A DNA stretch of 64,000 nt from Mytilus edulis (taxonomy: Eukaryota), in NCBI RefSeq assembly GCF_963676685.1, contig NC_092353.1, forward strand, positions 17,918,001 through 17,982,000, read 5' to 3'. Below, in pieces: positions 25,101 to 60,800 of this stretch (within the stretch, counting starts at the first letter, position 1; each line of letters opens with the position of its first letter). The translations under genes and the position numbers were made by a program. The notes beneath the pieces are model-generated. The model ran no database searches, had not been told where the DNA came from, and saw only the letters and a program-made list of their open reading frames with translations.

Positions 25101-28100
25101 AATGGTCATGATGTTAAACTTGATGATTGATTGTTGATTATAATGGTCAATTAAGAGAGTCAGAAGCACCTGAAATTCGCAGGCTTTGAATTCACAAGCT
25201 TAGTGGGGACAGGCTAGTGATACAGTAGATATTCTGAGGCCCCTCTAAAACTTTAATATATTTTTTAAAATATAACACGGCCTAACATTAATCTTGACCT
25301 CGCTAAAACAGGAATTATTTGACACAAACTGTATGTTTTTGTATTTTATTATTTAGGTAGTTGATTATAGCACAATGCTGACAGAAGTACAGAATATAAA
25401 TACAGATTCTGGTATCAGTCAAGTATGGGTGGCATTTCAATGTAATTATGCTCTATATTCAGCTCTTAGTTCAAAGGTTGGTAGTCATTACAATATAAGT
25501 CTTGAAATATAATGGAATTTACAGAAAAGTAAAAGTTATCAGGCCCTGAAGAAAAGCCTTTATAAGGTATCATCCAAAAAACACATAATGCCAGCTAAAA
25601 AAGTTAAGTTTATTGCTCAAACCAAAGTAAGACTTTGATTCAGAACCAGATTTTCTGTTAAAAAAGGTTTAGGGGAATAAGTCTGTGGCAGTTATTGCTT
25701 TTAATGTCAGCAATTTTGAATATCTATACTATTAGATCAGAAGATTTAATTTTTGTTTGTTGCTTCTCATCCTACATCCCAATAAATTAATCATCATGCC
25801 TTTGAGTTCCAAAGGTACCATGCATAGTCACATTTCATAAAATTTGCCAGTCATAAAATCTTTTACAAAAATTCCTCCTACAACAGGTTACATATGTTCA
25901 ACCATTCTCTAAATGCTCACAATTTTGCAGATTATGTATGTGTATTTGAAATTTTTTTTTTTTAGAAAGTTCATCAAGCTAACACTCCAGCTGCCTTGAT
26001 AAAGACCAGAAAGAATGCAATAGAACAACAAGGCATGAGAAATTCACATGTAAGTTTTATTTCTTTCAAATGTTAGAAAGTTAAAACTGTTTATTCGTTT
26101 AATACTTTCAATTCTGAAATGTGTGCAATGTTTTATTATTATGATAATTGTGATGGGATAGGTTAAATTTTTGCAAATTTGCACATTAACATTCAAAATT
26201 AGCATTATTTGTTGGCAGTGATTTCTGAAGTTTGATAATTAATCTTTGCATTTTTGTACATTGATCAAATAGCACAATAATAAAAGCTTAAATTTTTGGG
26301 AATTTAAAGAACTTCTTCCTTGTCTGATTTATGAAGATATCATTTCAAATCAGAATTATTTATTTTGTCACTCATTTTAATAAAGAAAGATAGAAAAATC
26401 AAAGCAATTTTTATTAGAAATTTTCAAAATGTTGGCATGAATTATAATTTCTTCTGAAGTTAATTTTTGTGCTGCTTAGTTTTAAAATTTTGACATTTCT
26501 AGTACCAGATTTGGTAACAGCTGAACAAGAAGCAACAAGACATACAAATTTTGAATGAATGAAGATACTAATATATGCTGAGATCTGTCTGGGCATTGTC
26601 AGTTCTGCTTGTATTAATTGGAGATGGCAGCCAGCACATGTATTCTGTTTATTTCACATTTGCATCATTAGGAATGTTTGTTTAACAAAACAAACTGCCA
26701 TATTATTATTTTACTTTAAAAATATAGATATAATTCTTTATGATACTAAAATGGAAAAATACCAGATTCTATTTTAATGACAGCACAACCAAAGTATGTC
26801 AATTTTCAGATCTTTTTAGATTTATGACTTCTAGAATGACATTTGAACTTTTCAGAGATTTATATATTTTTAGAAAAGAGATGCAGTTGCACTGATTACC
26901 TTCATAGCCAATTTAGAGAAAACTGTAAGTACAAAAGACATGATTTTTGTGCATTCATTGCATTTGAGAGATAAATTTTTGCTTTTCAACCTGGGGTCAA
27001 AATAAGCAATGGTCCAGTGGTCGGAGACCAGTAGAATTTGCATCGGACCAGTAGATTTGGCAAGATGGTGATCTCGCCAACTTATAGAAATTTGTCAAGA
27101 AAAATCATTGATAGCATTGTGATCACACTTTTTTGTATCACACTTTACAAAAAAGTGTATCTACCAAAACAATTACATGGTACTGTGGGGTACCAAGTAT
27201 TATATTTTATCTTTTGTCATAAATGGGGGACAGTTAAGTGCAGCATAGCTATATATATAGGGATACAGAAGTGACGTAGGGTTTACCATTATTTCATTTA
27301 ATTATCTAACATTCATACACTAATATAAACTGTCTTTATGTAGGATCATTTCATAAACCTCGACCAGTGAAACATCTCTTTTTTGTATCTTTGATAGATG
27401 AAAGATGGTACAAAGGAATGGACAGAGGTATCAGCAGCATTAGACCTCAAAGAGCATAGATTGTAAGATATATTTGATATTCTAGATAGATCTGCTGCTG
27501 CAGGTTTAAGATATAGACTAAGATAACTCACATTTGAGGATGTTCCAGAAATTTGATTTTGGTAAATTTTTAAGTCTTCAGCTTTCATTTTTAAGTTGAC
27601 CATGGAGTTCAAATAGGTTTAAATGACAAATTATTGTATTAACTCAGATTTTGTTGTTGCCTGATACAGTTGTGGCTGTGGTTAACAAAAGGTCAAAGTT
27701 CTGGTTTAACTTGCAGATAAGTTAGTATGCATAATTATTATAAAGATATATACTGAATTACTGATCTGCAGTTCATTGAAAATGGAAATGTGAGTGCGAG
27801 CAGGGCATGGTGTCAACTATGGAAAAATATTCTTGCATATAAATAGCTATGGGAATTTCCTATAACTTTGAAAAAATCTTCACCTTGACCTTATATATAT
27901 TGTCACAGAATGTGACTGATAGAAGCCTGTTTCCTTTATGTTTTTTTTTTTTCATATTCACATGAACATATTGTATTGTGTAAATTCTAAAGAGGATTGA
28001 TAAAATGATGTATGATTATTTTTCAATTTAGATCTCAAGAAAAAAACCGAGGTTTGAGTTTTTCCAGTATTTCAGCTGTTGGTAGTAATGGAGCCATTAT

Positions 28101-31100
28101 TCATTACCACCCGTCTGCAGACACAGACAAAAAGTTATCTCTCAATGAAATGTATCTTCTAGATTCTGGTGGTCAATATTTGTAAGTTATTATTTTATTT
28201 CCAGCAATGCTGAACATAACAGAGGTTTAAGTTTTCCAAGTATATCTGGAAGTGGACCTAATGGGGCAGTTATACATTATTTTCCGACACCAGCTACTGA
28301 TAGGAAATTAAGTGTTGATGAAATGTATTTGTTAGATTCTGGTGGCCAGTATTTGTAAGTTAGCTTTGTTCTAATGCTGACTCTGACCACATATAATCTT
28401 TATCATTAAAAGGACAGCTTCTTTCTGTTTGCTACAATCTTAACTTTCATGCATTTTCAGACTCTGATTTATTGCTTTATTTTGTTCAGCTGAAATGACT
28501 TTTTCTTTCACTGCTGCACTCGGACTGCTTATATTTTCCTGTCATACATTTTTTTTTCATTCTTCAGATCTTAAACAATTGTTTCTTTTATTTCTAAAAA
28601 TTCATAATGATAAAAGTCTTGACAACTTATTGCAGAAAGATAGAATGCATTGTTTTTTTTGACAAAATTAATATATCATTGATGGCATATATTTTAAAAG
28701 TTTACATATTAATGCCTTTTCATAAGTTCCAATGATGGTAAAATGTTTTTAGTGGCTAAACAGGAAAGACGGGTTACATAAGAACAGTATTTTGAAATTT
28801 TCGAGTTAGTATTTAAGTATTGCATGTATATCCAAGATAAAAAGTAATATGAATGTACAGTAGCATGAACTTAGTTGTGAATGTAACAATTCTCAAATGG
28901 AGTTACTACCCTTTGTACCTTGAAATATTTTCTAATAAAAAACATAGATGACACAAGTATCCATTAGTTTCATATGAGAGGAATTAAACTTGACATGGTT
29001 GTATGGCACATATTTATTTTATTTCACATGTGAAAAAAATGATAGCGGCTATCCTTTATAACTTAGAAATGGCCTGTATAGAGGATTGAATAGAAGGGAT
29101 GTGTACTTATTCATGACACAAAATATTTCTCCCAAGTTAATTAAAGCTAAGAAACAGTATCTTAATTGCTGCTCTTCATTTTAATTCACAATATTTTCAA
29201 CAGAAAGTAAAAAATCACAAGTTTTAAGATGACCCTTAGCAACAGTAGGGCTAATTTCATTTGATACTCTCGAGTTAACTTTACTTATTCAGGTTTCAAC
29301 AAAATGATTTTACTTGAACCACTCAAGTTAACCCCTCGTACCCTGGTTCCAACCCTCAACGAGCCACGGTTAAACTCAAGAAACTCTTGAATGACATCAA
29401 ACCAATGAGAATATTTTATTTTTTATGCTTGGTCAGGGCCTTACCCTAGAGTTACTTAGAGTTGTTCCGAATATCAACTCTTGTGCGTTCACTTGATAAT
29501 CTATTAACTCTGAAGTCGATTGTAGAGTTTCAAGTGAACTCGACCTAGGAGAAAGTCTTTGTTAGATGTTGATAATATTACTTCTGTACATTGAAGACTG
29601 TCACAAAGGGGAATAGTTTGTAAATGTGCCTTACAATTTATGATTTCTCCACTCTGAACACATATAATCTTTATCATTAAAATAACAGTTTCTCTCTGTT
29701 CACCATAGACTTTACTTTCGTGCATTTTAAAACTTTGTGTTACAGCTTTATTTTGTTCAGCTGAAAGGTCTTATTTTTTATGACTACTTATATTTTTCTG
29801 GCATACATTTATGTTTCATTCTTCCAATCTTAATGTTTAATTTATTGCTTGATAATATTCTTGACATCTAATTGCAGAAAGATAGAATGCATTGTTTTTT
29901 TGACAAAATTAATATATCATTGGTTGCATACAAGTCCACATTTGGACATTTGAAAAGTTAACATATGATAAATGCCTTTTCATAAGTTTCTACGACAGTA
30001 AAATGATTTTGTGGCTAAACATGAAAGACAACTTCACAAGAAAAATATTTTGGAATTTCAGATAATATTCAAGTATTGCATGTATATCCAATAGAAAAAG
30101 TAAAATGAATATACAGTAGCATAAACTTAGTTGTGAATATATCATGTATGGCAGTTAATTGGTTTTTGTATGCTGTGTAATTCTCCATTAGAGTTATTGC
30201 CCTTTGTAGCTTGAAACATTTTCTAATAAAATAAATATAGATGACACAAGTACCCATTTGTTCCATATGAGAGAAATTTTAAAAACTTAACATGGTTGTA
30301 TGGTACCTATTTGTTCATATTTCATGTGTGGAAAAAAAATCATAGAACTATTCTTTATAACTTAAAAAATGGCATGCAAAGAGGATTGAATAGACAATGA
30401 TGGAAGGGATGTGTAATTATTTATGAAACAAAATCTTTCTCCCGAGCTATTTAATATTAGGAACAGTATTTATTGTAAGTGGCTATATATTGTTTTGAAA
30501 AAATGTAATGATTGAATAAAAGATTAGAATATTCCATTATTTTGTAGGGATGGAACAACTGATGTGACAAGAACATTCCATTTTGGTTCTCCTACAGCAT
30601 ACCAGAAAGTAAGACATTGTCACAAATATTACATCTTTAATATTACACATAGTACTAGTTCAAAACTTATTCATTTTGCTTGTGGTCTCCGAGGTGGCTA
30701 AGTCATCTTCTTTTTTTTATGCCCCATTTATAGGCATTATGTTTTCTGGTTTGTGCGTCCGTTTGTTAGTCCGTTTGTTGCTCCCACTCAGGTTAAAGTT
30801 TTTGGTCGAGGTAGTTTTTGATGAAGTTGAAGTCCAAACAACTTGAAACTTAGTACACATGTTCCTTATGATATGATCTTTCTAATTTTAATGCTAAATT
30901 AGAGGTTTTTCCACATTTTCACGGTTCATTGAACATAGAAAATGATAGTGGGGATGGGGCATCCGTGTACTAGGGACACATTCTTGTCATAAGTAGTTCT
31001 ATCACTACCCAGTTAACTTTGAGGTTATGAGTTTGTACCCCCAATTGTGCTGGTGCACTTAACTCCAATCTTTAATTAACTAGCATTGTCAGTTTTCTTA

Positions 31101-34100
31101 TTGAAAGTCATTGCTTTCTCCAAGCACTCTGGTTTCCTCTATCCATAACAACTGACAGCCTCAAAATAGGCCAAAAATGGCGCTTAAAAGTTGCGTTAAA
31201 ACACCAACAATCAATTTATATTCCTTTTGCTTATGTTTGTGTTATAATGTTTTTTCAGATCTGTTTGACACCTTCTTTATGTTTTGAAAATAAATTGAAT
31301 TATGAGTATATCTTGTAATTCCTCATATGTTTATTTATAGTGAATATAAAGATATGTTATGGTTTTAAATTAAAACATCTATATGTTGATGATAATATTC
31401 CTTGATCTTGAAATGATTGATTTTGTAGGAGTGTTACACAAGAGTTCTGATGGGACAAGTAGATTTAGCTCGCATTTTATTTCCTAACACATTATATGGT
31501 AAGTTAGGATGTGACTTCCATCACAAAATTGTCACAATGTGAAACTTAAAATAACAATGTGTCTCTATATTGGGTTTATTTTAACCTTTATGTGAACTAA
31601 GTATGATAATTACAGTAAGATTAAAAGATTTCAATTAAAATATGAATGCACTTCTTTGTTACTGCAGGAATGTTACACTCGTGTCCTCATGGGTCAGGTT
31701 GACTTGGCCAGATTTAAGTTTTACAAGGGGCCCCATGGTCCCTATGGTGAGTTATGCACCTTGTTTGTACATATAGAAAAGCATGTATTTAAAAGTTTCT
31801 TCTGTTAACACCCATATATCACAACCATAGATAATAATCATACTAATAAATAACAGAAAAGAGTAAAATGAAATACCACACGACAGAGTCGAGGGCTGGT
31901 TTAATAACAACCATTTAATAATATTTATCATATATATATAGAGAATAATACATGGCAAAATCCGTATCATATGTCGTATCATCCCGAGACATCAATATCA
32001 GCCCAAGGGCCTTTAGGCCCGAGGGATGATATTGGTCGAGGGCGATACGGCATGTGATACGGATTTTGCCATGTATTATACGCTTTATCATATATTTCAA
32101 CAGAAGAGTATTATATTATATGAACTGTTTTCTGATCCATAGCACTGGGTTACCTTCAGTTCTACTTTTGTCTTGTTTCATAGGCCTTAAAAGAACTGCT
32201 CAATTACTTATCCGAAGCACCTGGGTTACCTTACAATTTGCGTGCTGTTGTTTTAAAAATATTTTGTTTATTATTGTATTAATTTGTGTGTTTTGTATTT
32301 TTCATAGTTGCATTTAGTGTGCCAAAAAATATGATAACTTGACGTTCGTGACGTCACATACAATGTGAAAACTCGACGTTCGTGACGTCACATACCAAAC
32401 AATGACGTCATTCAAAAAATTAAAAAAAGTAGGGGTGTGATAAAGGGTAGGGGTGTGATAAAGGGTATGCGATAAAGGGTGCGCATCAAAGTTGCGCGAT
32501 ATGGATTAAAGAGCAGGCTATTTATCACATATGCAAAACTACTGTATTTACTACTAAACATATGATAAATTTCAATAAACACAACCATTAATAAATCAAT
32601 CAATCTCTTAATGCATGATACAAAATATCAAATAACATGGATACATAAATTAACATGGCATATCAAGTAGACCCTATTGTGCCAATTGATTAAACTGCAA
32701 AAATCACACAACAAACTTAACCTAAAATGCCATCCATGGGCATACAATTCAGAAGAAATAATTTCATTCTAATTCATAAAATCATCCGACTGAAATTATA
32801 TTTTTGATGAATTGAAATGTTGTCTTTTCATCACACCCATTGTCTTATTATGTTTTGGGGTCATTCATCAAAATGAAAGGATGTGTTGTTTTTTTGTTTT
32901 TTTTTTTTTTAAATTTGTTCAAATGAAGCCTTTGTATATAACTTATTCTTTTTTTTAAATTTTGCATGATATAACCTTAGATTGTGAGGGTAGAAGTAAA
33001 CATGTAAAATCTATTTAGAATGTACCATGCTTGAGTGAGTTAGTGTTTGCATGGTTTGATTTCATGTATAGTTTATTTATAATTTAATATAGATGTTAAA
33101 GTGATGTAACTAGTGTGGTATGTTATATACTACAATTCTCCAATATGTTATGCATCAGATTATACAGCTAGATGTCATTAAGGGAACAAACAAGGATATT
33201 ATAAGTTTTACATTTATAATAGTTTGTAACACAATTTAGAATAAGGCGTTGCTGCAAACATTTTGGAGTCTTGTAGTTTTCCCTTTTTCGCTCTGCATTT
33301 TTTTGTGAAAGCAAATACTTAGAAAGTAATTGTGCATATCATGCTTATTATATTATGGTGAGGTTCAGCTCTTTAATTTTGAAAAAAGTTTGTTTTTGTT
33401 AAGAATTACAAACTTTGAGAAATGTCTTTTGTAAATGTATAAAAACTCAAAATATATAGGTAAGAAGCTAATTTTAAAAGGTGGTACCAAACACATTCCC
33501 TTAAAAAAATTTGACTTATTTTAATTTTCATAAAATTTTGACAAATTTTTACTTTAACCATAAGACAAAAATATGAATATTTCAAAAAAATTGAACCCAC
33601 ACTATATCGGAAAAGTTTCATTGGACAAATAACAGTTTGACTAACACCAATTTTGATTGTTAAAAGCTTTCTATTTCCTGAACAATAGAACGTAATGAAT
33701 ATTTTCAGCTGATTTCTACAGAGTTATCTCCCTGTAGTGTTATGTACCACATTTGTTGTGCATATTATATATCTGTAAAATGCAGCTCATTAGTTTGGAT
33801 TTTATCTAAAAACAATGTTTAAACAAATTATTAGTGATTATAAACCAGTTAATATTCTCAATAATTCTATTAAATCCGGAAAATGAAAAATGTTGAAAAC
33901 AAGTAATGAATGGGAGATAACATTGGTTGTTGTGGTTTTACATACATTATCTCCCTTGTATATCATTTATTAATAATAACTAGAAAAAATATTCCAAGTA
34001 ACAATAACAAAATAACTTTTTATTTATTTAGAGCTATAAAATTGAGAATGGAAATGGGGAATGTGTTAAAGAGACAACAACCCGACCATAGAAAAAAACA

Positions 34101-37100
34101 ACAGCAGAAAGTCACCAATAGGTCTTCAATGTAGCGAGAAATTCCCGCACCCGGAGGTGTCCTTCAGCTGGCCCCTAAACAAATATATACTAGTTCAGTG
34201 ATAATGAACGCCATACTAATTTCCAAATTGTACACAAGAAACTTAAATTAAAATAATACAAGACTAACAAAGGCCAGAGGCTCCCGACTTGGGACAGGCG
34301 CAAAAATGCGGCGGGGTTAAACATGTTTGTGAGATCTCAAACCTCCCCCTATACCTCTAGCCAATGTAGAAAAGTAAACGCATAACAATACGCACATTGA
34401 AATTCAGTTCAAGAGAAGTTCGAGTCTGATGTCAGAAGATGTAACCAAAGAAAATAAACAAAATGACAATAATACATAAATAACAACAGTTAACTGACAT
34501 GCCACCTCCAGACTTCAATTACACTGACTGAAAGATTATGATTTCATCATATGAACATCAGGCACAATCCTTCCAATAGTTTATTTTTATAATCATAGTT
34601 TGTTGTTGCTAATGCAAAAACCAGCACATTTTAGTTAAGTTCATAATATGAAGATCAAATCATATATCAAAATCTCATGTATTTCATTTTAAAACAAAAA
34701 AAACATGTATTTGATATTGTATAAAAAATGTAATTAGCCTGTAATAGTTTGACTACACTGTCACCAAGAATACTGTACAGTACATAACACATGAATTCAA
34801 AACATTATTTCACTTTTACAGAGGAGAAACATAATCATACCTAATATTTGTTGTCAAAGAAAAATTTAATCAGTTCCCTTCCTTGACTTTGACCTGAAAA
34901 GTTTTTAAACTATGATACCTATATCTTGTTACTTTAACATTTGGTTGCGTTTTGTGGTTTAAGTTGAAAAAAGAGGCAGTATAATATTCACACTGTGTTC
35001 GTTGTTTTACACTGCCTTCTATAATGTGTTTAAGTTGACATTGAAAAAGTCAAATAAGAAAAAGGAAAGTCGCTAAACAAATGGCAAAATGAAAAAATTT
35101 AACACAGACGTCAAACGAATGGAATTGTTTCTGTAGGATCAATTTTGAGCTAGAATGCATTAAGGATAAATTATTAGCACACAACATTTTTAAATATCTG
35201 TGCATAGTACACTTCAATTACATAACATTCAAGTTTTAAAGCTTTATTATGTCGAGATTACTACTTCCATATTAATTATTTTTAGGACGTGAAATTGATG
35301 CAATAGCCAGAAGACCATTATGGGATGTAGGTTTAGAATACAGACATGGCACAGGACATGGTATAGGGTCATATCTCAGTGTACATGAAGGTAGGTTTAG
35401 AATACAGACATGGCACAGGACATGGTATAGGGTCATATCTCAGTGTACATGAAGGTAGGTTTAGAATACAGACATGGCACAGGACATGGTATAGGGTCAT
35501 ATCTCAGTGTACATGAAGGTAGAATATATATCTAACAAAAATGATCAAAAAATATTAAGTTTTAACCAGTTCCAGATTGTATGATGAAAATTGATTATCC
35601 ATATATAAATGAGATGAATAAGATGAATGGAAAAATAGATTGAAAAACAATAAAAAGATGAATTTAAAAAATATGCTTCTTTATGCAATGCTTGAGCATG
35701 CATTAAACATTAAGGAATTTAAGATAAGGTGGAGAAAAAGAACTGAGACTTTAAGAACTATTTTTTTTTCATTTGCCACTAAACACATAGAAAACTCTAT
35801 TTACTAGATTTCCAATGATAATGTTGTACCGGTATATTATTTTATTATTAAACAGGTCCAGGAAGAATTTCATTATCTCATGCCAGTTTTGATAGTGATG
35901 AGAAGCTGGATGAGTTCATGTTTTTCTCTGATGGTAAGTCCGAATGTCTTATATAGATATAGGAAAATGTGGTATGAGTGCCAATAAGACAACTCTCCAT
36001 GCAAGTCGTAATTTGTAAAAAGAATACCAATATAGGTGAAAGTATAGCCTTCAACAGAGAGCCTTCGAACACACCTAAACAGCAAGGTTTAAAGGGCTCC
36101 CAAAATGACTAGTGAAAAAAACAATGGTTTAATTTATATACAAAATGAGAAACACTTATGAACCACTTCAACTAACAGCTACCACTGAATAACAGTCTCC
36201 TGGCTTTGGACAGATGCATAAAAATGCAGCAAGTTTAAACGTTTTAACAGGCGCTAACCTTCACCATAACCTGAGATAGGAGTGTAACATTACAACATAA
36301 ATAAGTTTGTTTGAAAAATGTTTTACAATAATTTACACCATAAAAGACAAATTTGAGATAATAAGTTTAACATATACAAAAAAATGTATTCATTTTCAAT
36401 AAAATTGAGAATGGAAATGGGGCATGTGTCAAAGAGACGACAACCCGACCATAGAAAAAAACATATATAATTTTATAAAAACAATATTGGTAGGTTGGCA
36501 TATATATGCAACATGTTAGAAATTAATGTAATGTTGAAATATATACATTATTGTCGAGCCTGTAACTTTTGTTGCAGAAAGCTCGACATAGGGATAGTGA
36601 TCCAGCGGCAGCGGCGGCGGTGTTAGCTAACTTCTTAAAAGCTTTATATTTTAGAAGGTGGAAGACCTGGATGCTTCATACTTTGTACATAGATGCCTCA
36701 TGTTACGAAGTTTCTGTCAGTCACATGTCCAATGTCCTTGACCTCATTTTCATGGTTCAGTGACCACTTGAAAAAAAAAGTTCAAATTTTTTGTAATGTT
36801 GAATTCTCTCTTATTATAAGTAATAGGATAACTATATTTGATATGTGCGTACCTTGCAAGGTCCTCATGTCTGTCAGACAGTTTTCACTTGACCTCGACC
36901 TCATTTCATGGATCAGTGAACAAGGTTAAGTTTTGGTGGTCAAGTCCATATCTCAGATACTATAAGCAATAGGGCTAGTATATTCGGTGTATGGAAGGAC
37001 TGTAAGGTGTACATGTCCAACTGGCAGGTGTCATCTGACCTTGACCTCATTTTCATGGTTCAGTGGTTATAGTTAAATTTTTGTGTTTTGGTCTGTTTTT

Positions 37101-40100
37101 CTCATACTATATGCAATAGGTCTACTATATTTGTTGTATGGAATAATTGTAAGGTGTACATGTCTAGCGGGCAGATGTCATGTGACCTTGACCTCATTTT
37201 CATGGTTCAATGGTCAATGTTAAGTTTTTGAGTTTTGGTCTTTTTATTTAATACTATATGCTATAGGTCAACTATGTTTGGTGTATGGAAATATTTTATG
37301 ATCTTTATGTCAGTCGTGCAAGTTTTATTTGACCGTGACCTCATTTTCACGGTTCATTGCACTGTGTTAAGTTTTTGTGTTTTGGTCTATTTTTCTTGAA
37401 CTATAAGTAATAGATGAACCATGCCAGGCAGACATGTACAGCTAGCAATGCTTCTATATGTTGTATAGAAGCATTGCTAGCTGTACATGTCTGCCTGGCA
37501 TGGTTCATCTGACCTTGACCTCATTTTCAAGGTTCATTGGTCTTTGTTTAGTTATCTTGGTTAATGTTAAGTTTATTTGACAGTTGTTATAAAGCTTAAC
37601 TTTATACTTAGGACTATCAACATAATATCAATGATTAGTATAGAAGGCGAGACATTTCAGCGTGTGCACTCTTGTATTATTTATATTTAGAGCCTGGTTA
37701 TTATGAAGCTGGACAATTTGGTATCAGATTAGAAAATATTGTCATGGTAACAGAGGCAGAAACTACAGTAAGGTTATGTAATACATATATTTATTTGTCC
37801 ATAGAGGTGTTTTACTATGAAAATCATTTGTCAAAATAATATTTTGGAAGTTATATGAGGTAATCAAAAACCAGGTCTAGGGAGATTTTGTATGCTCAAC
37901 AATTAAACAATTAAAAAGATGCAGGCTTGGAAATCTCACAAAATATTTCTATAAAATAAATTCAAACTGCCTACAAGATATCAGACCTTTTTTTCATTTA
38001 CAGTAAAATCCTTGTGAGCTTATTTTCTGTTTGTCCATCCATAGGTTGAAACAACTGGTTTTAAGATGATACCTTTTGTTTGAAATATGTGAAGAAAAAG
38101 ATATCTTCATGACTTTCATTCAAAAACCATGAAATAACCAATGGAATTCTGTATATCACTGCTCTGGAGAAATCTTTTATAAAATATTACAGCTATATAT
38201 GGATTAAAATTTTATCATAATCTAAGTTACTAGATGAAATTTCTTATGATATCACGTTTTAAAAATTAGCCATTTTATTGAGCATGCATGTGTTGGGATG
38301 TTATCTGCACAAACATTTAGCTATATAGGATTAGACGTTATATTGCATTTATTTATTTGTTCAACAGATTTTTTTGGTTACATTTGAGTAAATTTAATAT
38401 TTTGATTGCAGGTTAACAGTGATGAAGTTTAATTTGAGCACTTTTAGAATCTGTCAGATATCTATATATTTGTCAAAACTAAGAGTTTTTGCTATGTTGA
38501 ATGAACTTAATATTGTTACCACATTTCTTAAATTCTACTTTTAAATACTGAGTGACTTGAAATCTAGACTGCAACTTGACAGTCAGATGACATATAAAGC
38601 ATTTGCACTTTTGGAATTCTTTAGACCTCATATTTTCTCATTTATTTACAGTGCTATACCAACACCCAACTCCTCTGAAAAAACAGACATGTAAAATAAA
38701 ACATGTTCCAGATTACCAGACTTTGTTCATGTACAAAATGTGGTTGGTTTAAATCAATTTAATGAGCACCCAAACATGTTTTTGTGCCATAGAAAAGCCC
38801 TATTTCAGGATAATTTAGATGAACAGTAATTTTATTATGCAACTTTATGTTTTCAGTACAACTTTATGAACAGTACCTTCCTGACATTTGAAACAGTAAC
38901 TCTGGTACCCTATGAACCAAACTTGATTGATTATGATTTGTTGAGTCCAGAACAGGTATGTATTTATGCCCCATTTATGGGCATTATGTTTTCTTGTCTG
39001 TGCGTTCCTCCATCGGTCGGTTCATTTGCTTTTCATCCGTCTGTCCTGCTTCAGGTTAAAGTTTTTGGTCGAGGTAGTTTTTTTTATGAAGTTGAAGTCC
39101 AATCAACTTAAAACTTAGTAAACATGTTCCCCATGATATGATCTTTCTAATTTTTATGCCAATTAGAGATTCTATCCCATTTTCACGGTCCACTGAACAC
39201 AGAAAATGACAGTGCTGATGGGGCATCCATGTACTTGGGACACATTCTTGTTTATGTTTGATGGGAACAGTGTTATCAATTTAAATCAAAGCTGATGATA
39301 CCAAATACAGAAAGCCACCCAACATGACTAAATATCTGAGTGCATGAACACTTATGTTAGGACACACCTTGCTCTGTATTTATGACCCATTTATGGGCAT
39401 TATGTTTTCTGGTCTTTGTGTCGTTCGTTCTTCCGTTTGTCTGTCACGCTTCACATTAAAGTTTTCGCTGCAGTATTAAGTTTTTGGTAGAGGTAATTTT
39501 CGATGAAGTTGAAGTCCAATCATCTTGAAACTTAGGAAACATGTTCCCTATAATACGATCTTTCTAATTTTAATGCCAAATTAGAGGTTTTTTTTCCATT
39601 TTCATGGTTCACTGAATAAAGAAAATGATAGTGCGGATGGGGCATCCATACACTTGGGACACATTCTTGTAAGGAGGGGAATTAGTAACAAGGAGAAAGA
39701 TTCCAACCAAAATGTCATTTATTAAAAGCAATCAAATTTATTTACAACAGGGGAGATAATCTTACAAAGGGTAACATTTATATGCCCCTGATTTAACCCC
39801 TCTGATAAAAAGCCACCCTACAAAAAATATGGCATACAAAAAGCAAAAGCAAAAGACATGTTTTACTTAAAGCTAATTATGAGGCCATGCCGTCCTAACA
39901 TATCTGTTATCTGATTGGTAGGTTAAATATACAGATTAAACAATTATGCAATATACTTTTAGTTTAAATTGACTTTGCAATTCAAATAGTTGTCTACATA
40001 GACCTGAATAATTTTTTTAGGAAAGAATGCAATGCAATTTTAAATTTTGTTTTGACCTCAATATGTTTTAAGTAGAATGTAGATTAATATATTCATGATA

Positions 40101-44305: not shown

Positions 44306-44311
44306 AATAAA
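44306..44311 (+). terminator. Candidate polyadenylation signal of gene 1
   Basis: AATAAA about 660 nt after the stop codon, followed by a T-rich tract. Confidence 0.4.
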
Positions 44312-48800: not shown

Positions 48801-51800
48801 GTTTAATTCCAATGGTGTCAACTTACAAGGGGTAATAATTCCATCAGAAGATGCACACCAGGTATGTTTTTTAGGAATAAATTATACAGTGTACATTGTG
48901 TAAAATTATAGCATTTCAAAATTTGACCATAAAAATACAAATTTATTATTAACTTTTAAAAAAAAACTGAATTTGATATTGTCCCAGAGATGATCGTGAG
49001 CTATTTGAAAGGATATTTATATAGAGAATTTGAAGAAAATAACAGCATCATTTAAGTCTTGTTTCAAGCTTTGATTAAGACAATTAATTTAAAGGAAAAA
49101 AATATAGAAGGTAAAATATCTTCATACAACACTATAAATGTATAAAAATAACTATAGCCAATCTTATATATTTGAAGGACAGATAGTTAGTGGTCAGTTG
49201 TAATGACAGTAGTACTGTTAAATAAGAACATTTATTATTCTAATCAAATCCATTGATGGGCAACATGACATGTACACATACAACAATACATCATGATTTG
49301 TAACAGAAAAAAACCCATTTTTTTATAAAATTGAAATGATATAATATAATATTAAAAGTTCAGACAGATGTTATTATCTTCATTGTATATAAGTCACATA
49401 CATTTAATTCCAGGCAGGACCTGAGAACTGTACAATCATTATGATTATCATTGTTATGACATATATTAATTGACATTCTGTCTAACATCTAGACACGTAA
49501 TTATAAAGTTTCCTATATATTTACACATTATATAAACACATTACTTTGGTAAATAACCAAATAATTTTGCCTCATTTGGAAAATATGAAAAATTAAAACA
49601 AATACTGTATCTCCTTGAAACAGTTCTTTGAATGCTGAACAACTAGTAGTAAAATGTTGTTCATCTTCAACTAGATTTTCTTACAAATAAACTCATCATA
49701 GATACCAGGATGAAATTTTCTTATTTATGCCAGACGCGCATTTTGTCTACAAAAGACTCATCAGTGACGCTCGAATCAAAAAATGTTTAAAAGGCCAAAT
49801 AAAGTACGAAGTTGAAGAGCATTGAGGACCAAAAATTCCTAAACGTTTTGCCAAACACAGCTACGGTAATCTATTCCTGAGGTAGAAAAGCCTTAGTTTT
49901 TCAAAAATTCAAAGTTTTGTTAACAGTTAATTTATGATTATGAACATATCAATGATAACTCAAGTCAACACAGAAGTGCTGACTACTGGGCTGGTGATAC
50001 CCTCTGGGAAGCCTTTGGTCTCTTTCTATATGTAAAGTTTAAAATACCTGTTATCATTATTCTGATCGAAGCAGTTACTTTTTGCACACATACCTATATA
50101 TTGATGAATACTATGTTGATTAATTGATTTTGTTATGTTTGTTTTTTGTGTTGTGGGTCACTGATTTATTAATGTGAGTCCTTCTTCTTTTATCAATACC
50201 ATAAGTAACCATACAAGATGCCAAATTACATCCCTTGCACTTGAATTTTTGTTGGGAAAAGTAAGGCTTGTTTTAATTTTATGTATATTGTGTTTTACAC
50301 ATATAAAATTGAGAATGGAAATAGGGAATGTGTCAAAGAGACAACAACCCGACCAAATAAAAAACAAAAAACAACAGCAGAGGGTCACCAACAGGTCTTC
50401 AATGTAGCGAGAAATTCCCGCACCCGGAGGCGTCCTTCAGCTGGCCCCTAAACAAATATATACTAGTCCAGTGATAATGAACGCCATACTAATTTCCAAA
50501 TTGTACACAAGAAACTAAAATTAAAATAATACAAGACTAACAAAGTATGTCTAGAATTAAGTACAAAGGGCTCATGAACAAATTAATTTTACATGTTATC
50601 ATCCTGAGGTGCATGCAATTTTTGGCAAATGAAATAACACATCCATATATCAATATATTACAATTTTAGAGTGAGTTCCCAGCAGAGTATGATAAAAGAA
50701 GAGCCTATATCTCTGGATACGATGGATCACATGGTAAGTATACAATATATTACGATTTTAGAGTGAGTTCCCAGCAGAGTATGATAAAAGAAGAACCTAT
50801 ATCTCAGGATTCGAAGGATCACATGGTAAGTATACAATATATTACAATTTTAGAGTGAGTTCCCATCAGATTATGATAAAAGAAGAGGCTATATCTCAGG
50901 ATTCGATGGATCACATGGTAAGTATACAATATATTACAATTTTAGAGTGAGTTCCCAGCAGAGTATCAGATGAAAGAAGAGCCTATATCTCAGGATTCAA
51001 TGGATCTCATGGTTTGTATCAGATTATTGTTCTGATTGTTGTAGTGTAAATTAATAAGAATGAAATCTTATGTTTGCCTGTCTAATATCAGGGATATAAA
51101 TTTACAAATCGGAAATGATTAATACCCTCAGTAACTAGTCTGAGGACACAGTTATTGCCCTTTGGGTTTTTGTTGTTTACAAATATAGTTCCAAGTGTGA
51201 TCGGTGTATAACTTGTAATTTTTTTCACATACTTTCCCAATTTATTTTTTGATATTTTATGCATGAAATATTAGGTATAGGGATGAAGTTACATGTTTGG
51301 GTGCTGAATATTAATGTTAAGAAGGGATTTGGCCTAATTGAAAAAGGTAAAAACATAGATTGTCTGAAGCTGTCAAACTGAATTTAAGAGCCAGTGCATA
51401 GACTTTTGTTGTCTACCCTTTGATCAGGTTGTTGTCTCTTTCACATATTCCCAATTTCCATTCTTAATTTTATATGCTATAATTTTGATAATATTTGTTC
51501 AGATAGTAGTACACTACACTGTAAAAATCTTTTTGAGAGCATAAGAAAAAGGTAAATTTTATTCCCTACTATCATAGGCTGATGACCTGGCACCATGAAG
51601 ATGATAATAATTCATATAATGTATCCTTTTGATAGGTTTAGCTATAGTATTGAAGGACAAAGCTGCACTATGGACTGATGGTAGATACTATACCCAGGCT
51701 GAGAACCAGTTAGACTGTAACTGGATACTTATGAAACAAGGTTAGAATGCCTTCAAATTTATTTTTAGTTGTTTTGAGTAGTTGATTACATAAATAGTGG

Positions 51801-54800
51801 GAGGGAATACCATAATTAAAGAATTTATTTAGTTTTTATTATATAATATTTAATTTCAAAGGTGCACAAAATAGAATTATACAATAGAAATACTTGGATT
51901 CGGAAACAAGAAGAACTTATATAAATCTGTCTCCCTTAAAAAAGAAAATGACAAAATTAGGAACATAGTATAAGAAACTTTTCATTGCATGTTTATTCTG
52001 TGGTTTGTGCATTACTCAGAAGGAATTCATTTAACAACTCCAATTCAAAATGTTGCATGTTTATTCTGTGGTTTGCCCATTACTCAGAAGGAATTCATTT
52101 CACAAACTCCAATTCAAAATGTTAATTGACAACAGTTGGTATTTTTGAATCCAAAGAACTTAAAATCAACTAATTGAACTTGGCAAAATTTTTCAAAGTA
52201 TTGAATAAAATATTCAGTTTTTTCAATATAAGTAGATTTGAAAGAGAAAAAAAATACAGTTTTAAAACTACCTATAGATATATTTTCTATTTATTGGAGG
52301 GGAGGGAAGGGGTAATTTGCTTGTGAATCTGTAACATTTTATGTTTTTATTCAGATGAACCAAACACACCAACCTATGAAGAATGGATCCTTGCCAACCT
52401 GGGAACCAGTTCAACAATGTCCAATAGAAATATTGGTCTAAATCCATTGTTTATTACTAGCAGTAAGTATATTAGTATAACAGTGAATAAATTGAGGTTA
52501 TACATTGATAATGCCAGGCTTCTCGTTGTAGATTGAATTGAGTGTTAAAATCTTACCATTAGATTATTGTATAAAATAATTTGATAGTTTCATTTATACT
52601 GCTGGGAAGGTGCCATTAAGTGAGTTTATTTTTACCTTAGATGACAACACATTGATTATATATTGAAGAATTGATGCTTCTTTTTGTAAAAGCATTGACC
52701 AAAGTACATTTTGTATGAAGCGCAGAAGTGCTTCATTTTAAAATTGAACACACATTCAACGCTTTTACAACGCTATGAAGAGGGGGATAGGACCTATATT
52801 GGGACTCTGGGATCAGGTGTTTTTTAGCCCAGTATTTCGGGATCAGTGACACAGAAAGTAAGTACCGTCATAATATTTATTCCAAAGATAATTTATTATG
52901 TAACAAAAGTTCCAATTGAGATTATTGTTATGTGATGTTTATTCCATCAGCATAATAAAAGGACTGATGCCTCAGAATTTTTATCACTTAAAATAAATTC
53001 CACATAATAAATTATCTTTGGAATAAATATTATGGTCGAAATTTCATGTTATGACTAGTATAGCATTTTGACTTGCATCATTTTGACATATCATTCATTA
53101 AAATGAAAAAAAATGGGGAAAACATCTTATGTCATAGTTATTCCAATAGGAAAAAGTATTATGTAATATTTATTCTGATTGGAAAAAATATAATATATCA
53201 TTTCTGACCCAAAAATTTGATTGTATTCATAACTGTTTCATTTTGAAATGAAGAATGACGCAAGATTGCGTATAATAATAGCATATAATAATGAAACATA
53301 CAACTAATGTAGTTATAATGCATTGAAAGTTGTATAAGTTTAAATGTAGTTTTTTGTTATAATCATTTATTTTATTTTCTCTTTAATTTTATGCTTTAGG
53401 TGCTTGGATTACAATGGATAGAAATTTAAAGGCAGAAAACATCAACTTATACCAGATGAATAAAGATTTAGTTGATGCAATCTGGCAGTTTGGTAGACCA
53501 GGAAGGCCTAGTAGTAAAATTCATGTTTTAGAAGATAGATTTTCAGGTAAGGCTTCGTTAGTTATTGTTCAACAGTCAACCTTAATAGTATTATTTTGTT
53601 TTATCCACTATAAATTTGATAGGATGAAATAAGTTGATGAAATCTGTTTTGAGTAATGAAGTAGTGTAACAAAAAATATAATGTTTTCATACTCCAATAT
53701 TATAAATATTGGACTTTTGTTAGAAATTTATTGGAAAAATCAAATATTGTCAAAATAGATAATCTGAAACAAATGCCAAAAATACTTAAGTTGAAGGTAA
53801 ATTTTTAATTGTTTTGAAAGAGAGAAATTGGGAATTACAACTGATGCAAAATTGTACCCCAAAAAACAATTGTGAATTTTTAAAAGTTTGACATTTTTTG
53901 AAGGTAAAAATTGGCAACAGAAGGTAACAGAAGATGTATATAAAGCAATGTTGGACCGTAAAGCTGATGTCTTAATTATCACACAACTAGATGAGATTGC
54001 ATGTAGGTTTAGTTAATATATTTAATTAATTTCTTAACGGTTCAGAATTTATATAATAATTATGTTAACCCAACAGAAGATGTATCTGAATAAAGTTTGC
54101 TTCAAAGGTCACTTACTAATGTATAAAATGTCAAGAGTATTTTCCAGTTTATAATATGAATCACTGAATTAAAGATGAAACGTGTACATAGTAATTGCAT
54201 TGACTATTAAATAAAAATTAAAACTTAAGTGGTTTCTCAGAAAATATTAAAAATAAACATTAGAAATCGTTTGCAAGAATTGGTTTGTAATAAAACTAAT
54301 GAAAAATATTTGTCTTTTATGAGTGCCTATACATTTGTTTTTACCTTTATTTATTTACAGGGCTTTTTAATTTGAGAGGATCAGATGTAAAATATAACCC
54401 TTTTTTCATGTCATATGCTATTCTTGAAACCCAAAATGGAAATCTTAGAATTAGGTATGATATGAACTGCATACATTTCTTTTAAAAATTTCAGGTTTGA
54501 AGGTTTTAGATTAATTTTATAATCATTGTTATACTGTAGACTATACATGTGTTAACAAACTTTTCTTACAACTATTCCATTCAAATTCCAACTATCTATG
54601 CAAGATATTGAACTTAAAGTGTACAACGCAAGTGAGAGATTTTTTTATAAATTAAAATTTAGAAACTTTGATTAAAAGGGTTTTCTTTAGTCATAAAGGG
54701 TAGATAATTTTTGTGTCTCTGCATTTAGTCTAAAGATTTTGTATTTAAAATAATGCTACTGGTACTTGGTAAAAAAGAACAACAAGGAAAACCAAGCTTA

Positions 54801-57800
54801 CAATCTACAATGGCTTCAACTTGGGGAAAAAATAACTGTTTTGTAAAATTATGTTGTATACAGAAAACATCAAAAGTTATTTCCCCCAAATTGCACTCCT
54901 TTGTTTTACTTAACTCAGTACCACATTGTCCTATTGTCCTACCACAGAGTGGATAATTGTCAAAGTTATAGTAATCTTTTAAAAGTAGAAATAATACTTT
55001 GCTATGTAATTTCTCTCATCAGATTATTTTTATGGGATAAGTTGAGGAAGTTAACAGAACAGCCATCAGATCCAGAGTCTACATCAAAACTGAACGTATA
55101 CCTTAACACAGGCGTTAGTGGATCATGTACTGACAGGATAGGAATGTGTGTGGAGGTATAGTGACTGTCATTAAGAATATTTAAAACAATTAATACAATT
55201 ACAGAGTGTAAATTCAGAAATTATTGCGATGGTTTGATAATTGCGAAATAACAACAGGGTGATAATCGTAATTAAAAACTCGCATGTTGAAATTCATTTA
55301 AATGAGTTAAACAGGATTTTTCTCAATATCGCGAAAATTAAAATCACAATAATAAATGCACAAAATACAGTAGATTATCACTGTAAGGTTGTTATTTATT
55401 CAATGTTGGGAAATATTTGATGATGTTATGTGTCACTTCAACAAAGTTTAAATGTTTTGCATAGTTTGCATGTTAAGATGTTGCCGTTTAAATTTCAACA
55501 TTTGCACTAGACTATTAAATTACAAAAAAGCAAGACATATATCTGTGTCAACATTTTATCATTAAATACTTTTGACTTTGTTGTTTCCTTTTCTCTTAAA
55601 TAGTGTTAAAAAAGAACTTTTATTTGACAACTTGATTCTTGGATTCATTTATTTTGAAATCTTACAGTTTGATTTGAGCAAAACATTTGAAAAGGAACAA
55701 CAGGTAAAAGCCCTGATAATTGCTTGAATAAGGGTTTCAAAGAAAGCAGAAAGTCTAGTAATCTTATAGCTGGAGACATGATACCATAAACTAGCCAACT
55801 TCTTGTTTGCCTATTTATTTTGTAATACTAAAAAGGTGCTTTTTACTGCTTTTAATATGACAGGTAGAAGATTACAACACCTTTATAAATGCTGTTATTG
55901 CTACTGTTAACAAAAGAGATGTAAAGAAAGTTTGGATACCTTTCCAGTGTAATTATGCCATTTATAAAGTCATCACAAAGGTAAGTTGTCTTACTATTAA
56001 AGTGACAATGACACTGTGTAGATATATAATATCATAATATCATGACAAACGACACTGTCTTGAAAATAGTTGTTTCAAGTCTTGTCATATTTGAAACTTG
56101 ACGCTACTGTGGAATCAATTATTTTCATGGTATCAATTATGATTGATTGAGGATATATTGCATTTTTGTGAATATTTGATTTCTATGTGTTGTCAAAGTC
56201 TGTTTACAACCACACCCAATATCAAATTTGTGGTTCATCTTTATCAACAAAACCCACAATAATATGTATCCCACCAATTATAATGAATCCACAGTATTCA
56301 CCAGTTAGTGCTTCTCCTGTTCCTTGTCTCAATAAATGGTATTGTGGGCCTGGCAATTTACATTGCTTGCTGAAAGTATTGCAATATAATATAAGTTAAA
56401 CGTATTTTAAAATAAAAGTAAGAGGTTAATCAGAATATGTTTATATATGGTACCTCCTGAAAAATTTCATGATTCCTCAAATCAGTTATATGTCACTGTA
56501 TAACACTGAAATCTGTTGTGTTCAATCTATTTTATGACCAAAGCAGACATTATTAGGAAATATTGTTATTTTACAGGAAATATATCAAGGAAATACACCA
56601 GCAGCTCTGAAAAAGTTTCAGAAAAATCCAACAGAGCAACAGGGTCTAAGAAATGCACATGTAAGATTTATTGATTAAATAAATTAGATTTGAAAATGTT
56701 TGCTTACATTTAAAATTAAAGTTGTTGAACATTGAACAAAGATTTGAGAATATCAATAAGATTTTAGAAAATTCTTTATGTAAGTATAAATTTCATCAAA
56801 GTTTAAAATGAGATTTGTACTATCAAAATTTAAAAAGTTAGTTTTACTTTTGTGAAATCTATCCAGTCCAACTTTAAGCAATAATAAAAACATGGGCCAA
56901 AGATTTTAAATTTTAGTTATCAAGGTTTTTGATTAATGTAAAATATATATAATAAAGATGTTTATCTTTAAGCACTTATGATCACATTACTAATTTTGTA
57001 TATGCATTAGTGGGGAATTTCAGAATAAAAATCACATTCTGAGGTAGAGAGAGTTATTGGAGTATTCAATTTTTTATTCATAATTTGTTTTCCAAAATTA
57101 AGAGAATGATTTAGTACTGATCACATAACTAGTACTTTTAATGGAATCGCACATGTTAATTTTCGTATTTAAAAGATCTATTGAATTTGGCATTAAATAG
57201 ATTAGAAACACATGTTGAAATTCTTTTTACATATGGAAGTATAGTTGACTTTTGTTTTTATTTCAGAAAAGAGATGCAGTTGCACTTATCACATTCGCTG
57301 CAAGACTTGAGAATCAGGTACTATATTAATTTATACTTTAACCTCCAGTTTGCCTGCATACAGTGGATTCATTATTTATGGGATACCATTTCTTGTGTTT
57401 TGTGTTTCTAAGGAAACCATGAATTTAGATGTAAAAATAGTACAGATTTCCTATCAGCTTGTATACAGTCATTGGAAAAAACTTGAAATCAATTGTATGA
57501 AAATTACATTCATCCTTAAAAATCTGCTTCAACAGATGTAGGAAAGTTAGACTTGAGCTTGCTGTTTCGTGTGGCATTGTTAAAGTTTGTGTTAAAGTTA
57601 CTTTAGGTCACTAATATAGCATTGACATCTCATGTCCATGGGTATAATTTTGCCCTGTAAATGCAGTCCATTGACTTTGAAATTCTTGCACAGTAAAATT
57701 ATTTTAATCTATATACACATGTAGCAGACATATGATGAGGAAGAAAGTCATACATGATTTATTGATTGTTGTTTGCATTGCTCATAGTCATTCAGTATTG

Positions 57801-60800
57801 TTGTTTTAATTTCAACATTTGCATTTATACTATCGTCATAACCCAAAAGATAGACATGCATTATTTCTGTGCATGCATTTAAAGATCCTGCAGAAAATAA
57901 AATCTTTACCTAAATATTTGGCAAAAGTGACTACCTCTTGTTTGGTCTTTTGAATTTTTTATTTTTATTCTCATTTTGTATGCAGATGTTATAGATTCCC
58001 AAAATCCTCCACCTCTTTAGGTAAGAATCAGTAAATGTAAATAAAACCCTTCTTCCATAATGGATAAACCTCTTATGGGTCATTTTTTTGAGGGCTCATA
58101 CATAATTGGTTGAATGTTTATGATTGTTTTAGGTGAAAAGTGGTCAGTTTCCTGTTGCAACTGAGCTATCTGCAGCCAACCAACTGGACTCATTCAGAGG
58201 GTGAGTTAATAGTCTTTGTCATTTAATCTACTTTTCATCCTTGTTTATCGTGACTGCGACTTTGCGACAATACATCTCTCGCTGCTTGTAAACATTTGAA
58301 AGAGATATTGTTTTCTTTTTGAATTTATATTTTTGTCAGTGAAGTAGCCGGCACTTGAAGCCACCGTAAATGGCGGATTTCTGCCAGCTAGCAGCTTCAA
58401 TGGAAAGCCCTGGTGTTGTTGTCCATGTAGCATTGTTTGTGAAAAGTATATCCTCTGTTTTGTCCTTTATATATGAAGAAGTCTAAAATTTCCATTCTCA
58501 ATTTTAAAGTCTAAAATCCATATTTCAGAAGAGAGATCTACAACAGAGGTACCAGTTTCCCAACCCTGTCAGCTTACGGAACTAATGCTGCTATCATCCA
58601 TTACATGCCAAGTTTGTCTACAAATGTAGAGATCAAAACAGATAACATGTATCTTCTGGATTCTGGAGGACAGTATCTGTAAGTACAAAATAATTAAAAA
58701 ATCTACTGTGATGAAATTTAAACATCCATTTTATTTAAACTTGTTTAGTAGTTGTTTTGAATTTAAATTCTTGTATTAATGCAAGTCATTGTTTTGTCCC
58801 GGAAGCTCTTTACAACAGAAAAATAGTATAAAGATAAATTCCTGGATTCAGAATGAATACTACCTTACTTTAGCAGAGATAATGGAGTTTTTATTGTTAT
58901 TTTTTCCTCAGGGATGGAACCACTGATGTGACACGTACATTTCATTATGGAGTACCAACGAATCGTCAGAAGGTACATAATTTTGATAATCATTTTTCAA
59001 ACAATCATATTGAGTGTATTGTTGGTCATTTTTTGGAGAATTTGTATAAGTTTAAGATTAGAAATGCTGTGAGAAGCATATACAATAAATAAAGTTCTCA
59101 ATATGAAGAACGACACTAGAATTGTTGTTTCTTTGAAAATAAAAAAAAAAGAATGGTTCCTATATTTTATGCTGTTTCTGTGTTATTTATACTTCATCAA
59201 ATGATTTCTTTAAATTAAAGGTTTTATTTGTGTCATAAAAGTACATATCATATGACATCATTTGAACTACTGTACATACTAAAAATTGAAAATTTATTTT
59301 GGACAGGAATGTTACACTAGAGTTCTGATGGGACATATCGACCTGGCTAGATTTATTTTCTATAAAGGAGCATATGGACCCTATGGTAGAGAAATAGATG
59401 CTATAGCCAGGAGACCACTGTGGGAAGTTGGACTAGACTATAGGCATGGGACTGGTCATGGGGTAGGGGCATATCTAAGTGTGCATGAAGGTATTTATTG
59501 GTTGAAATATATTTTTATGCCCCACCTACAATAGTAGAGTGGCATTATGTTTTCTGGTCTGTGGGTTCCATTCCTTCGTCCGTCCATTCGTCCTGCTTCA
59601 GGTTAAAGTTTTTGGTCAAGGTAGTTTTTGATGAAGTTGAAGTCCAATCCACTGGAAACTTAGTACACATGTTCCCTATGATATGATCTTTCTAATTTTA
59701 ATGCCAAATAAGAGTTTTTACCCCAATTTCACGGTTGACTGAACATAGAAAATGATAGTGCAAAAGGGGCATCCATGTATTTGGGACACATTCTTGTTAA
59801 TGGGATGTTTTTATGTTTGATACTTAAATTCTTTGGGTAAACAGACGTTAAGCATCCAACAATCAATCAATCAATCTTTGGGTAGACCAAATAAATAGTA
59901 AATATTTACTCTTGAAAATCTAAGAAGACAAAACATTTTCTATATCAAGACAATTTTTGTATTGCATTGCATCACATGAAAAGCTGTAAAAAAAGTAAAA
60001 AAAGTCTCAAATCAATGAGTATAAGGAAATTCATTGAAAATAGACCAATACATTTTTAGCTCACCTGGCCCAAAGGGCCAAGTGAGCTTTTCTCATCACT
60101 TGGCGTCCGTCGTCCGTCGTCCTTCGTCCGTCGTCGTCGTCGTCCGCCGTTAGCTTTTACAAAAATCTTCTCCTCTGAAACTACTGGGCCAATTTTTACT
60201 AAACTTGGCCACAATCATTATTAGGGTATCTAGTTTAAAAATTGTGTCCGGTGACCCGGCCAACCAACCAAGATGGCCGCCATGGCTAAAAATAGAACAT
60301 AGGGTGTAAAATGCAGTTTTTGGCTTATAACTCAAAAACCAAAGCATTTAGAGCAAATCTGACATGGGGTAATATTGTTCATCAGGTCAAGATCTATCTG
60401 CCCTGAAATTTTCAGATGAATCGGACATTCCGTTGTTGGGTTACTGCCCCTGAAATGGTAATTTTAAGGAAATTTTGCTGTTTTTGGTTATTATCTTGAA
60501 TATTATCATAGATAGAGGTAAACTGTAAACAGCCAAAATGTTCAGTAAAGTAAGATCTACAAATAAGTAGTCAACAGGACCAAAATGGTCTGTTGACCCC
60601 CTTTAGGAGTTATTGCCCTTTATAGTCAATTTTTAACAATTTTTCGTAAATCTTGGTCATCTTTTACAAAAATCTTCTCCTCTGAAACTACTGGGCCAAA
60701 TTAAACCAAACTTGACCACAATCATCATTGGGGTATCTAGTTAAAAAAATGTGTCCGGTGAACTGGCCAGCCAACCAAGATGGCCGCCATGGCTAAAAAT

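Follow-up and report, generated by a model that had tools for sequence, protein, structure and literature searches.

Two old pairs of alternative exons in a Mytilus edulis aminopeptidase P gene may vary its substrate preference

The window analyzed here is a stretch of 64,000 nucleotides (nt) of Mytilus edulis (contig NC_092353.1), and coordinates refer to this window unless stated otherwise. It carried a tandem pair of plus-strand aminopeptidase P genes, and two pairs of tandem homologous exons, 15a/15b and 17a/17b, were found in the first of them. The two genes were located as follows.

4091..43650, plus strand: gene 1, aminopeptidase P of the three-domain peptidase M24 type, with 22 exon positions and 714 or 717 amino acids (aa)
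47455..64000, plus strand: gene 2, the tandem paralogue, starting at about 47455 and running beyond the window end, with one exon 15 only

The translation of gene 1 exons 3-22 agreed with the M. edulis RefSeq isoforms X3 and X4 at 663 of 663 residues, and the identity between gene 1 and gene 2 was 56%. The Pfam domains Creatinase_N, Creatinase_N_2, Peptidase_M24 and M24_C were found in 4 of 4 proteins, both genes included, and human 3CTZ was matched at E = 3.5e-157. The motifs IHY, LDSG, GTTD, HGTGH, VHEG, EPG and R[LI]EN were present in 5 of 5 proteins, and the metal ligands (Asp, Asp, His, Glu, Glu) together with the substrate histidines were kept by every isoform. As an aminopeptidase P, the gene 1 product would cleave N-terminal Xaa-Pro bonds. 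The hydropathy profile of gene 1 peaked at both ends (2.66 and 2.53, compared with 1.24 internally), and the hydrophobic N- and C-termini of both genes would represent a signal peptide and a membrane anchor. Membrane-bound XPNPEP2 is the anchored form of the enzyme, and the hydrophobic termini of the mussel proteins may correspond to those of this form. At least three further paralogues of this type were found in the genome, together with one partial gene and one cytosolic-type gene; the mussel family comprised at least five such paralogues, the cytosolic-type gene apart.

A peptide self-scan covering 42 exon cores of genes 1 and 2 flagged exactly four repeated sites, with scores of 85-182 against shuffled null maxima of 36-48. 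An earlier note on this DNA had described four duplicated exon sites and a whole-gene duplicate in one peptidase family, and both the sites and the paralogue were confirmed. Two of the four sites were the pairs of gene 1.

28032..28181, plus strand: exon 15a, 150 nt, predicted to be mutually exclusive with 15b; it encodes SF..I, IHY and the LDSG motif with its metal-ligand Asp
28182..28204, plus strand: spacer of 23 nt, containing the 15a donor and the 15b acceptor
28205..28354, plus strand: exon 15b, 150 nt, predicted mutually exclusive alternative to 15a
31429..31498, plus strand: exon 17a, 70 nt, with the short loop LFPNTLYG of ancestral length
31668..31746, plus strand: exon 17b, 79 nt, with a loop three residues longer than that of 17a, of the oyster-like type and at the predicted dimer interface

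The members of both pairs were tandem homologous exons with matching phases, valid splice sites and open frames. Exons 15a and 15b, bordered by AG and GT, shared 67% nucleotide identity with a synonymous divergence (dS) of about 1.9 and a nonsynonymous divergence (dN) of 0.26, and are near synonymous saturation. Exons 17a and 17b lay 169 nt apart, and 12 of the 14 differences in their shared first 15 codons fell at third positions. As the earlier note had proposed, both are old pairs with heavy synonymous divergence; they are intact, and both members have kept frame, splice sites and amino-acid sequence. The conserved motifs which it had named (SE[Y/F], IHY, LDSGG and HGTGHG) were identical between copies and are therefore not the varying part.

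All four single-choice combinations of exons 15 and 17 were in frame, giving 714 or 717 aa. RefSeq isoforms X1-X4 represented all four of them in M. galloprovincialis and M. trossulus, two combinations (X3, X4) were found for M. edulis among the 15 of 21 cluster members listed, and both the 15a and 15b forms were present in M. coruscus. Single inclusion was shown by the RefSeq isoforms in three Mytilus species, and 15a and 15b were merged in some GenBank gene models. Across four Mytilus species, 46-49 of 49 residues were identical in 15a and 47-49 of 49 in 15b. A protein 74% identical to gene 1 had 15b-type and 17b-type segments. Different means of exclusion are suggested by the sequence for the two pairs. 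Splicing is reported to be excluded at donor-to-branch distances below 50 nt in human (PMC5740500) and in introns below 40 nt in C. elegans (PMC4165533); the 23-nt spacer is shorter than either limit, so that the exclusion between 15a and 15b would be steric. Joint inclusion of 15a and 15b kept the frame (764 aa) and could therefore not be policed by decay. Joint inclusion of 17a and 17b broke the frame, with a stop at 542 aa, and exclusion in this pair would be enforced by the frameshift and probably by decay. Just after 15b, an exon-free, intron-only tandem duplication of about 0.8 kb was observed at 28380..30476 on the plus strand (28380-29169 versus 29651-30476, 87% identical).

The distribution of such swaps was evaluated in 29 protein clusters, mostly picked for names containing 'isoform'. 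A homologous internal swap was detected in 18 of the 29, and 17 of these 18 were located at exon 15, 17 or 19; the Homarus cluster was ambiguous. The exon-17 swap was found in Mytilus, in four oyster species (long and short forms) and in four scallop genera (three variants), the oyster long form being the nearest neighbour of 17b, and the second oyster paralogue had a long loop too. The exon-15 swap was found in Mytilus and Mya, and the exon-19 swap in a Mytilus paralogue, Mya, Littorina, Babylonia, Pomacea, Apostichopus, Lytechinus and Strongylocentrotus. No swap was seen in the clusters of Dreissena, Physella, Patella, Haliotis, Octopus, a spider and Holothuria, in two clusters of the second oyster paralogue, or in one oyster-type cluster known from Logan only. 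The earlier note had pointed to orthologous loci of other bivalves; at the protein level, Mytilus and oysters had the exon-17 choice in common. Mussels and oysters are reported as sister orders, with Mytilidae going back to the Devonian (PMC4936043), and the long 17b loop, as a character common to both, fits this relationship. Whether the exon-15 pairs of Mya and Mytilus go back to one ancestral pair was also considered; nearest-neighbour scores gave this no support, and 49 residues are too few to settle the matter. Among the other four mussel paralogues (60 exon cores scanned), only exon 19 of the C10 gene at 15.79 Mb was flagged. This pair (C10, about 15.798 Mb; 8571-8262 on the minus strand of locus L017) consisted of two AG/GT-flanked exons about 150 nt apart, with a partial, decayed repeat of 19b in the spacer between them. 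Three Mytilus species had annotated isoforms for it.

The swapped segments were then mapped on solved relatives. The apstatin contacts Phe378, Ile381 and His392 of C. elegans APP-1, together with the ligand Asp413, aligned into exon 15, and the APP-1 loop which faces the C-terminal end of the inhibitor (PMC4404410) aligned to exon 19. In Plasmodium APP, Pro661 and, from the partner subunit, Tyr617 are reported to form the S4' subsite, which drives inhibitor selectivity (PMC13100289); with a chain offset of 119 used in the alignment, the counterpart of Tyr617 was Thr529 in the 17a loop, and Ser658 and Pro661 fell in exon 19. The human APP1 loop corresponding to exon 17 is described in the same source as proline-restricted, directed away from the ligand and unlikely to form S4'. 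The Phe-Pro of this human loop was kept by 17a and replaced by a longer aromatic loop in 17b (human XPNPEP1 residue numbers from a table in PMC10377022). The conserved dimer Trp was present as in solved aminopeptidase P enzymes. The monomer model reached a predicted local distance difference test score (pLDDT) of 90.6. When the catalytic domain was modelled as a homodimer, the model scored 0.73 compared with 0.01 for the best control, with contact agreement of at least 86% between runs and pLDDT of at least 88, and its interface took in residues 524-527 and 531-534 of the 17b loop. As for the mark used for calling dimers, 21 of 30 microbial solved pairs passed it and 0 of 23 microbial single chains; for eukaryotes the figures were 17 of 29 and 0 of 30. 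Since similar dimers have already been solved, the pass of the mussel model may reflect memory. On this mapping, exon 15 is predicted to form a pocket wall, exon 17 a loop reaching in from the partner subunit, and exon 19 a distal-subsite loop.

The other two repeated sites, one in each gene, were of a different kind, and are listed with the corresponding exons.

35286..35390, plus strand: exon 18 of gene 1, constitutive, with HGTGHG and the first donor
35391..35518, plus strand: two additional identical repeats of the 64-nt 3' end of exon 18 plus donor, acceptor-less, shifting the frame if used
50670..51011, plus strand: exon-4 array of gene 2, copies a-c 64 nt and in frame, copy d 66 nt and frameshifted
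59307..59490, plus strand: fused exon 17+18 of gene 2, with a long 17b-type loop

The exon-18 triple (35327-35518) consisted of three identical 64-nt ends with donor, without an intron acceptor. The earlier note was right that this repeat is identical; what is repeated is not the exon, only its last 64 nt and donor, three times. The copies are not whole exons: they have no acceptor of their own and do not keep the frame, and use of the second or third donor would leave a truncated protein of 586 aa. This repeat is probably neutral.

The exon-4 copies of gene 2 started at 50670, 50762, 50854 and 50946, separated by 28-nt spacers. The slight divergence earlier ascribed to this array was found among a-c (92-94% identical), and copy d was broken by a 2-nt insertion. 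Contigs of two DNA samples crossed the array junctions with zero mismatch; the array is therefore real DNA, and an assembly artefact was ruled out. In run X10, probably RNA, exon 3 was joined to exon 4 and copy b to exon 5 with GT..AG borders, and run X12 gave zero cover on exon 4 (none of the runs listed as carrying the sequence was on record as RNA, and the RNA nature of both runs is a guess). RefSeq isoforms of M. edulis used copies b and a, another M. edulis model used b, and one type each was annotated in three other Mytilus species; copy c was not seen in the X10 splice contigs or the RefSeq isoforms. The proportions of nonsynonymous (pN) and synonymous (pS) differences were about equal for a versus b and a versus c, and the SEF residue matching contact Tyr43 was kept by all copies. 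Copy c (50854-50917) differed from a and b at three amino-acid sites of its own, all as in gene 1 (SDY, RRG), which may be a retained ancestral state or gene conversion. An unspliced X10 contig over the b-c spacer (50798-50881) had 3 differences from the window and may come from another allele of the array. The array is young; it may be a cluster in the making, or it may be polymorphic with only one of its copies functional. In the fused exon 17+18 of gene 2, no intron and no 17a copy was detected; the 17/18 intron absent from gene 2 was kept in gene 1 and four other paralogues.

To place these duplications against a background, four other metallopeptidase families were scanned within 1.5 kb as controls; after 8 unplaced-contig duplicates and 11 long single-exon matches had been dropped from 110 control loci, 91 exon cores were left. 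Five of the 91 were flagged, four as young copies and one as a weak decayed match, and no old intact twin exon was found among them. The four young copies were 91-100% identical and consisted of an exon 3' part with donor, the same anatomy as the exon-18 repeat. Young cases numbered 2/100 in the family versus 4/91 in controls (p = 0.43), and young copies of exon 3' ends seem to be a common mutation type in the M. edulis genome. Because young partial-exon repeats occurred at about 4% of control exons, only conserved pairs at such Mytilus loci should be interpreted as functional. The graded series of ages described in the earlier note thus puts selected exons and background noise together. Copies of this kind, a tandem exon 3' end with donor, were observed at control loci L057, L113, L123, L139 and L141, one of them short and unflagged.

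These results suggested, with a probability that we put at roughly 0.6, that the two old intact pairs of gene 1 give four isoforms likely to differ in substrate preference, the exon-18 repeat being noise and the exon-4 array undecided. Such a difference is likely given that, by prediction, the exchanged segments form part of the lining of the active-site pocket. The gene 1 enzyme would be a surface-anchored homodimer, in which exon 17 would swap a loop crossing the dimer interface towards the distal subsite of the partner, and exon 15 would swap second-shell residues around invariant contact residues. Gene 2 would have arisen by duplication, fixing the long 17b form and losing 17a and the 17/18 intron. 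Splicing would in this way tune the pocket.

Several points weigh against this reading. The known contact residues were the same in 15a and 15b, and only their neighbours differed. Since the human loop corresponding to exon 17 is directed off the ligand, the mussel loop may act on dimer stability. The M. trossulus isoforms X6 and X7 were annotated without exon 15, an in-frame loss of a metal ligand, so the annotation takes in non-functional forms, and isoform evidence is mostly automated RefSeq annotation. When raw RNA reads of four runs (X21-X24) were placed on 27300-35390, exon-bin depth was about 0-3, no exon junction was among the rows displayed, and intronic repeats filled the tables. Run X24 had a depth of 2.98 on 17a and 0.12 on 17b, and runs X21-X23 had 0-1.12 on 17a and 1.45-2.11 on 17b; these shallow values hint at a switch and were not counted as support. 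In X24, 11 reads at 31461 came from about 4 starts, and the constitutive exon 14 had depth 0 in two runs. As this depth is too low for junctions, evidence for the expression of exons 15 and 17 consists of automated annotation and conservation. Old pairs were found at 3/100 family cores versus 0/91 controls (Fisher p = 0.25). The choice of clusters by 'isoform' names means that 18/29 overstates prevalence, and exon limits outside Mytilus came from protein alignments alone. In two oyster clusters, 21 of 21 listed Logan proteins with exon 17 were of the long type, so the short form may be minor. The only phylogeny was an unfinished tree from a quick search, with no vertebrate XPNPEP2 included, in which pteriomorph proteins grouped (98) and genes 1 and 2 grouped (86).

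The main rival, which we consider unlikely, accepts that the old pairs are mutually exclusive and has them tune some property besides substrate choice, for instance dimer stability, partner choice, temperature or pH tolerance, or glycosylation. It draws on the invariant contact residues of 15a and 15b, on the position of the exon-17 loop within the modelled dimer interface, and on the human loop, which falls short of the ligand. Against it, swaps recur at three segments, each bordering the pocket in solved relatives, and the chance that 6-7 origins fall in no more than 3 of 19 exons was 0.011-0.002, or 0.039-0.010 with exon 4 included (independence assumed, post hoc).

Improbable in our view is the proposal that all four duplications and the gene copy form one combinatorial system, with the young arrays as nascent selected alternatives. 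Exon 4 lends it some colour: copies a-c keep the frame, have donors and lie 28 nt apart, b is spliced in X10, a and b both appear in RefSeq isoforms, and the copy differences are mostly non-synonymous, the three changes of copy c matching gene 1. Against it, copy d has lost its frame, pN and pS are about equal for a versus b and a versus c, and a single exon-4 type is annotated in each of three other Mytilus species; the exon-18 copies form no exon, break the frame and have the same anatomy as 4 of 91 control exons. The exon-4 array also belongs to a different gene from exons 15 and 17, and no single protein can therefore contain all four sites. What stands of the combinatorial diversification suggested in the earlier note is the four in-frame, annotated and conserved forms from exons 15 and 17, exons 18 and 4 being separate matters.

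The null explanation offered in that note, a by-product of a high local tandem-duplication rate with the alternative exons as tolerated leftovers, fits the exon-18 repeat, the young partial duplications common in the genome, the intron-only duplication of gene 1 and the non-significant difference between family and controls, and it is very improbable for the whole locus, since both members of each old pair are conserved in frame, splice sites and amino-acid sequence although synonymous sites are saturated, and since the exon-17 choice is common to mussels and oysters, orders of which the mussel line dates from the Devonian. The null therefore explains exon 18 and is largely refuted for exons 15 and 17; the density of duplicated exons alone does not set the old pairs apart, and conservation does.

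It is well established that homologous mutually exclusive exons can change residues close to functional sites (PMC7954323). The mussel pairs resemble reported cases (PMC5740500, PMC7954323) in near-equal length and phase, in steric or frameshift exclusion and in variable residues near functional sites; unlike most, they form two clusters in one enzyme, where 554 human genes are given as single-cluster among 629 clusters (PMC5740500). Neither aminopeptidase nor XPNPEP was named in the main text of Lam 2021 (PMC7954323), and no description of mutually exclusive exons in aminopeptidase P was found among the literature listings searched, subscription journals and genome-wide supplements on mutually exclusive exons aside. 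The mussel enzymes share the three-domain M24 fold and metal-ligand motifs with XPNPEP1 (3CTZ), APP-1 (4S2R/4S2T) and the Plasmodium enzyme (5JQK). For the human, C. elegans and Plasmodium enzymes, mutually exclusive catalytic-domain exons were not found described, and unlike them the mussel has at least five such paralogues plus the cytosolic-type gene.

Proven changes of enzyme specificity by splicing are reported to be few, among them coq-2 exons 6a/6e of helminths, annelids and molluscs, and CYP4F3 (PMC7434440). As in coq-2, internal mutually exclusive exons would remodel a catalytic region in several phyla, with single versus repeated origin unsettled; unlike coq-2, the substrate switch of the mussel is deduced, the contact residues do not vary, and the exon used differs between lineages, with three in all. 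Gene 2, fixing the 17b type, resembles the mosquito Mhc3 and Mhc4 copies, each of which kept one variant per alternative exon (PMC2257972); gene 2 differs in having also lost the neighbouring intron and in being an intact though diverged tandem paralogue, which is conserved across four Mytilus species. Independent clusters combine as in Dscam, but gene 1 has only 2 x 2 forms and no large arrays, and does not belong to a Dscam-like class. The mechanism is thus of a known kind, with isoforms already in RefSeq, narrower than the four-part system first described and wider in phylogeny. The family offers a compact test case: a single peptidase with four naturally occurring isoforms, and three pocket segments that have been swapped repeatedly, including the loop reported to drive inhibitor selectivity in Plasmodium APP (PMC13100289).

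A bolder and doubtful extension, which we put forward tentatively, is that in marine invertebrates splicing programmes the specificity of the surface aminopeptidase P, with mixed dimers and later one-form duplicates. If so, exons 15, 17 and 19 would have gone through recurrent duplication in bivalves, snails and echinoderms. As the loop of exon 17 would act across the dimer, mixed-isoform dimers would make pockets beyond those of any single transcript, and gene 1 would yield up to 10 dimer types. At a later stage, duplicated genes would settle on a single form, mussel gene 2 and the oyster paralogue being examples.

A number of minor features were also observed. Two first exons were seen for gene 2 (window 47455-47529), corresponding to alternative N-termini in the M. 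trossulus and M. coruscus models, and N-terminal differences were also present among Mya isoforms. Short AG/GT-flanked segments in gene-2 introns (55668-55703, 57986-58020) were absent from the annotated protein and are probably due to chance. The C1 paralogue was adjoined by a partial second copy of its 3' exons (C1:97707898-97708811). Open frames at 7441-8280 and 19164-19418 (minus strand) in gene-1 introns resemble reverse-transcriptase remnants of a retroelement. Satellite-like intronic arrays with periods of 147, 169 and 499 nt occurred at 23621-24192, 36890-37413, 44438-44851 and 60149-61694, and an inverted repeat pair of 130 nt was located at 41150-42619.

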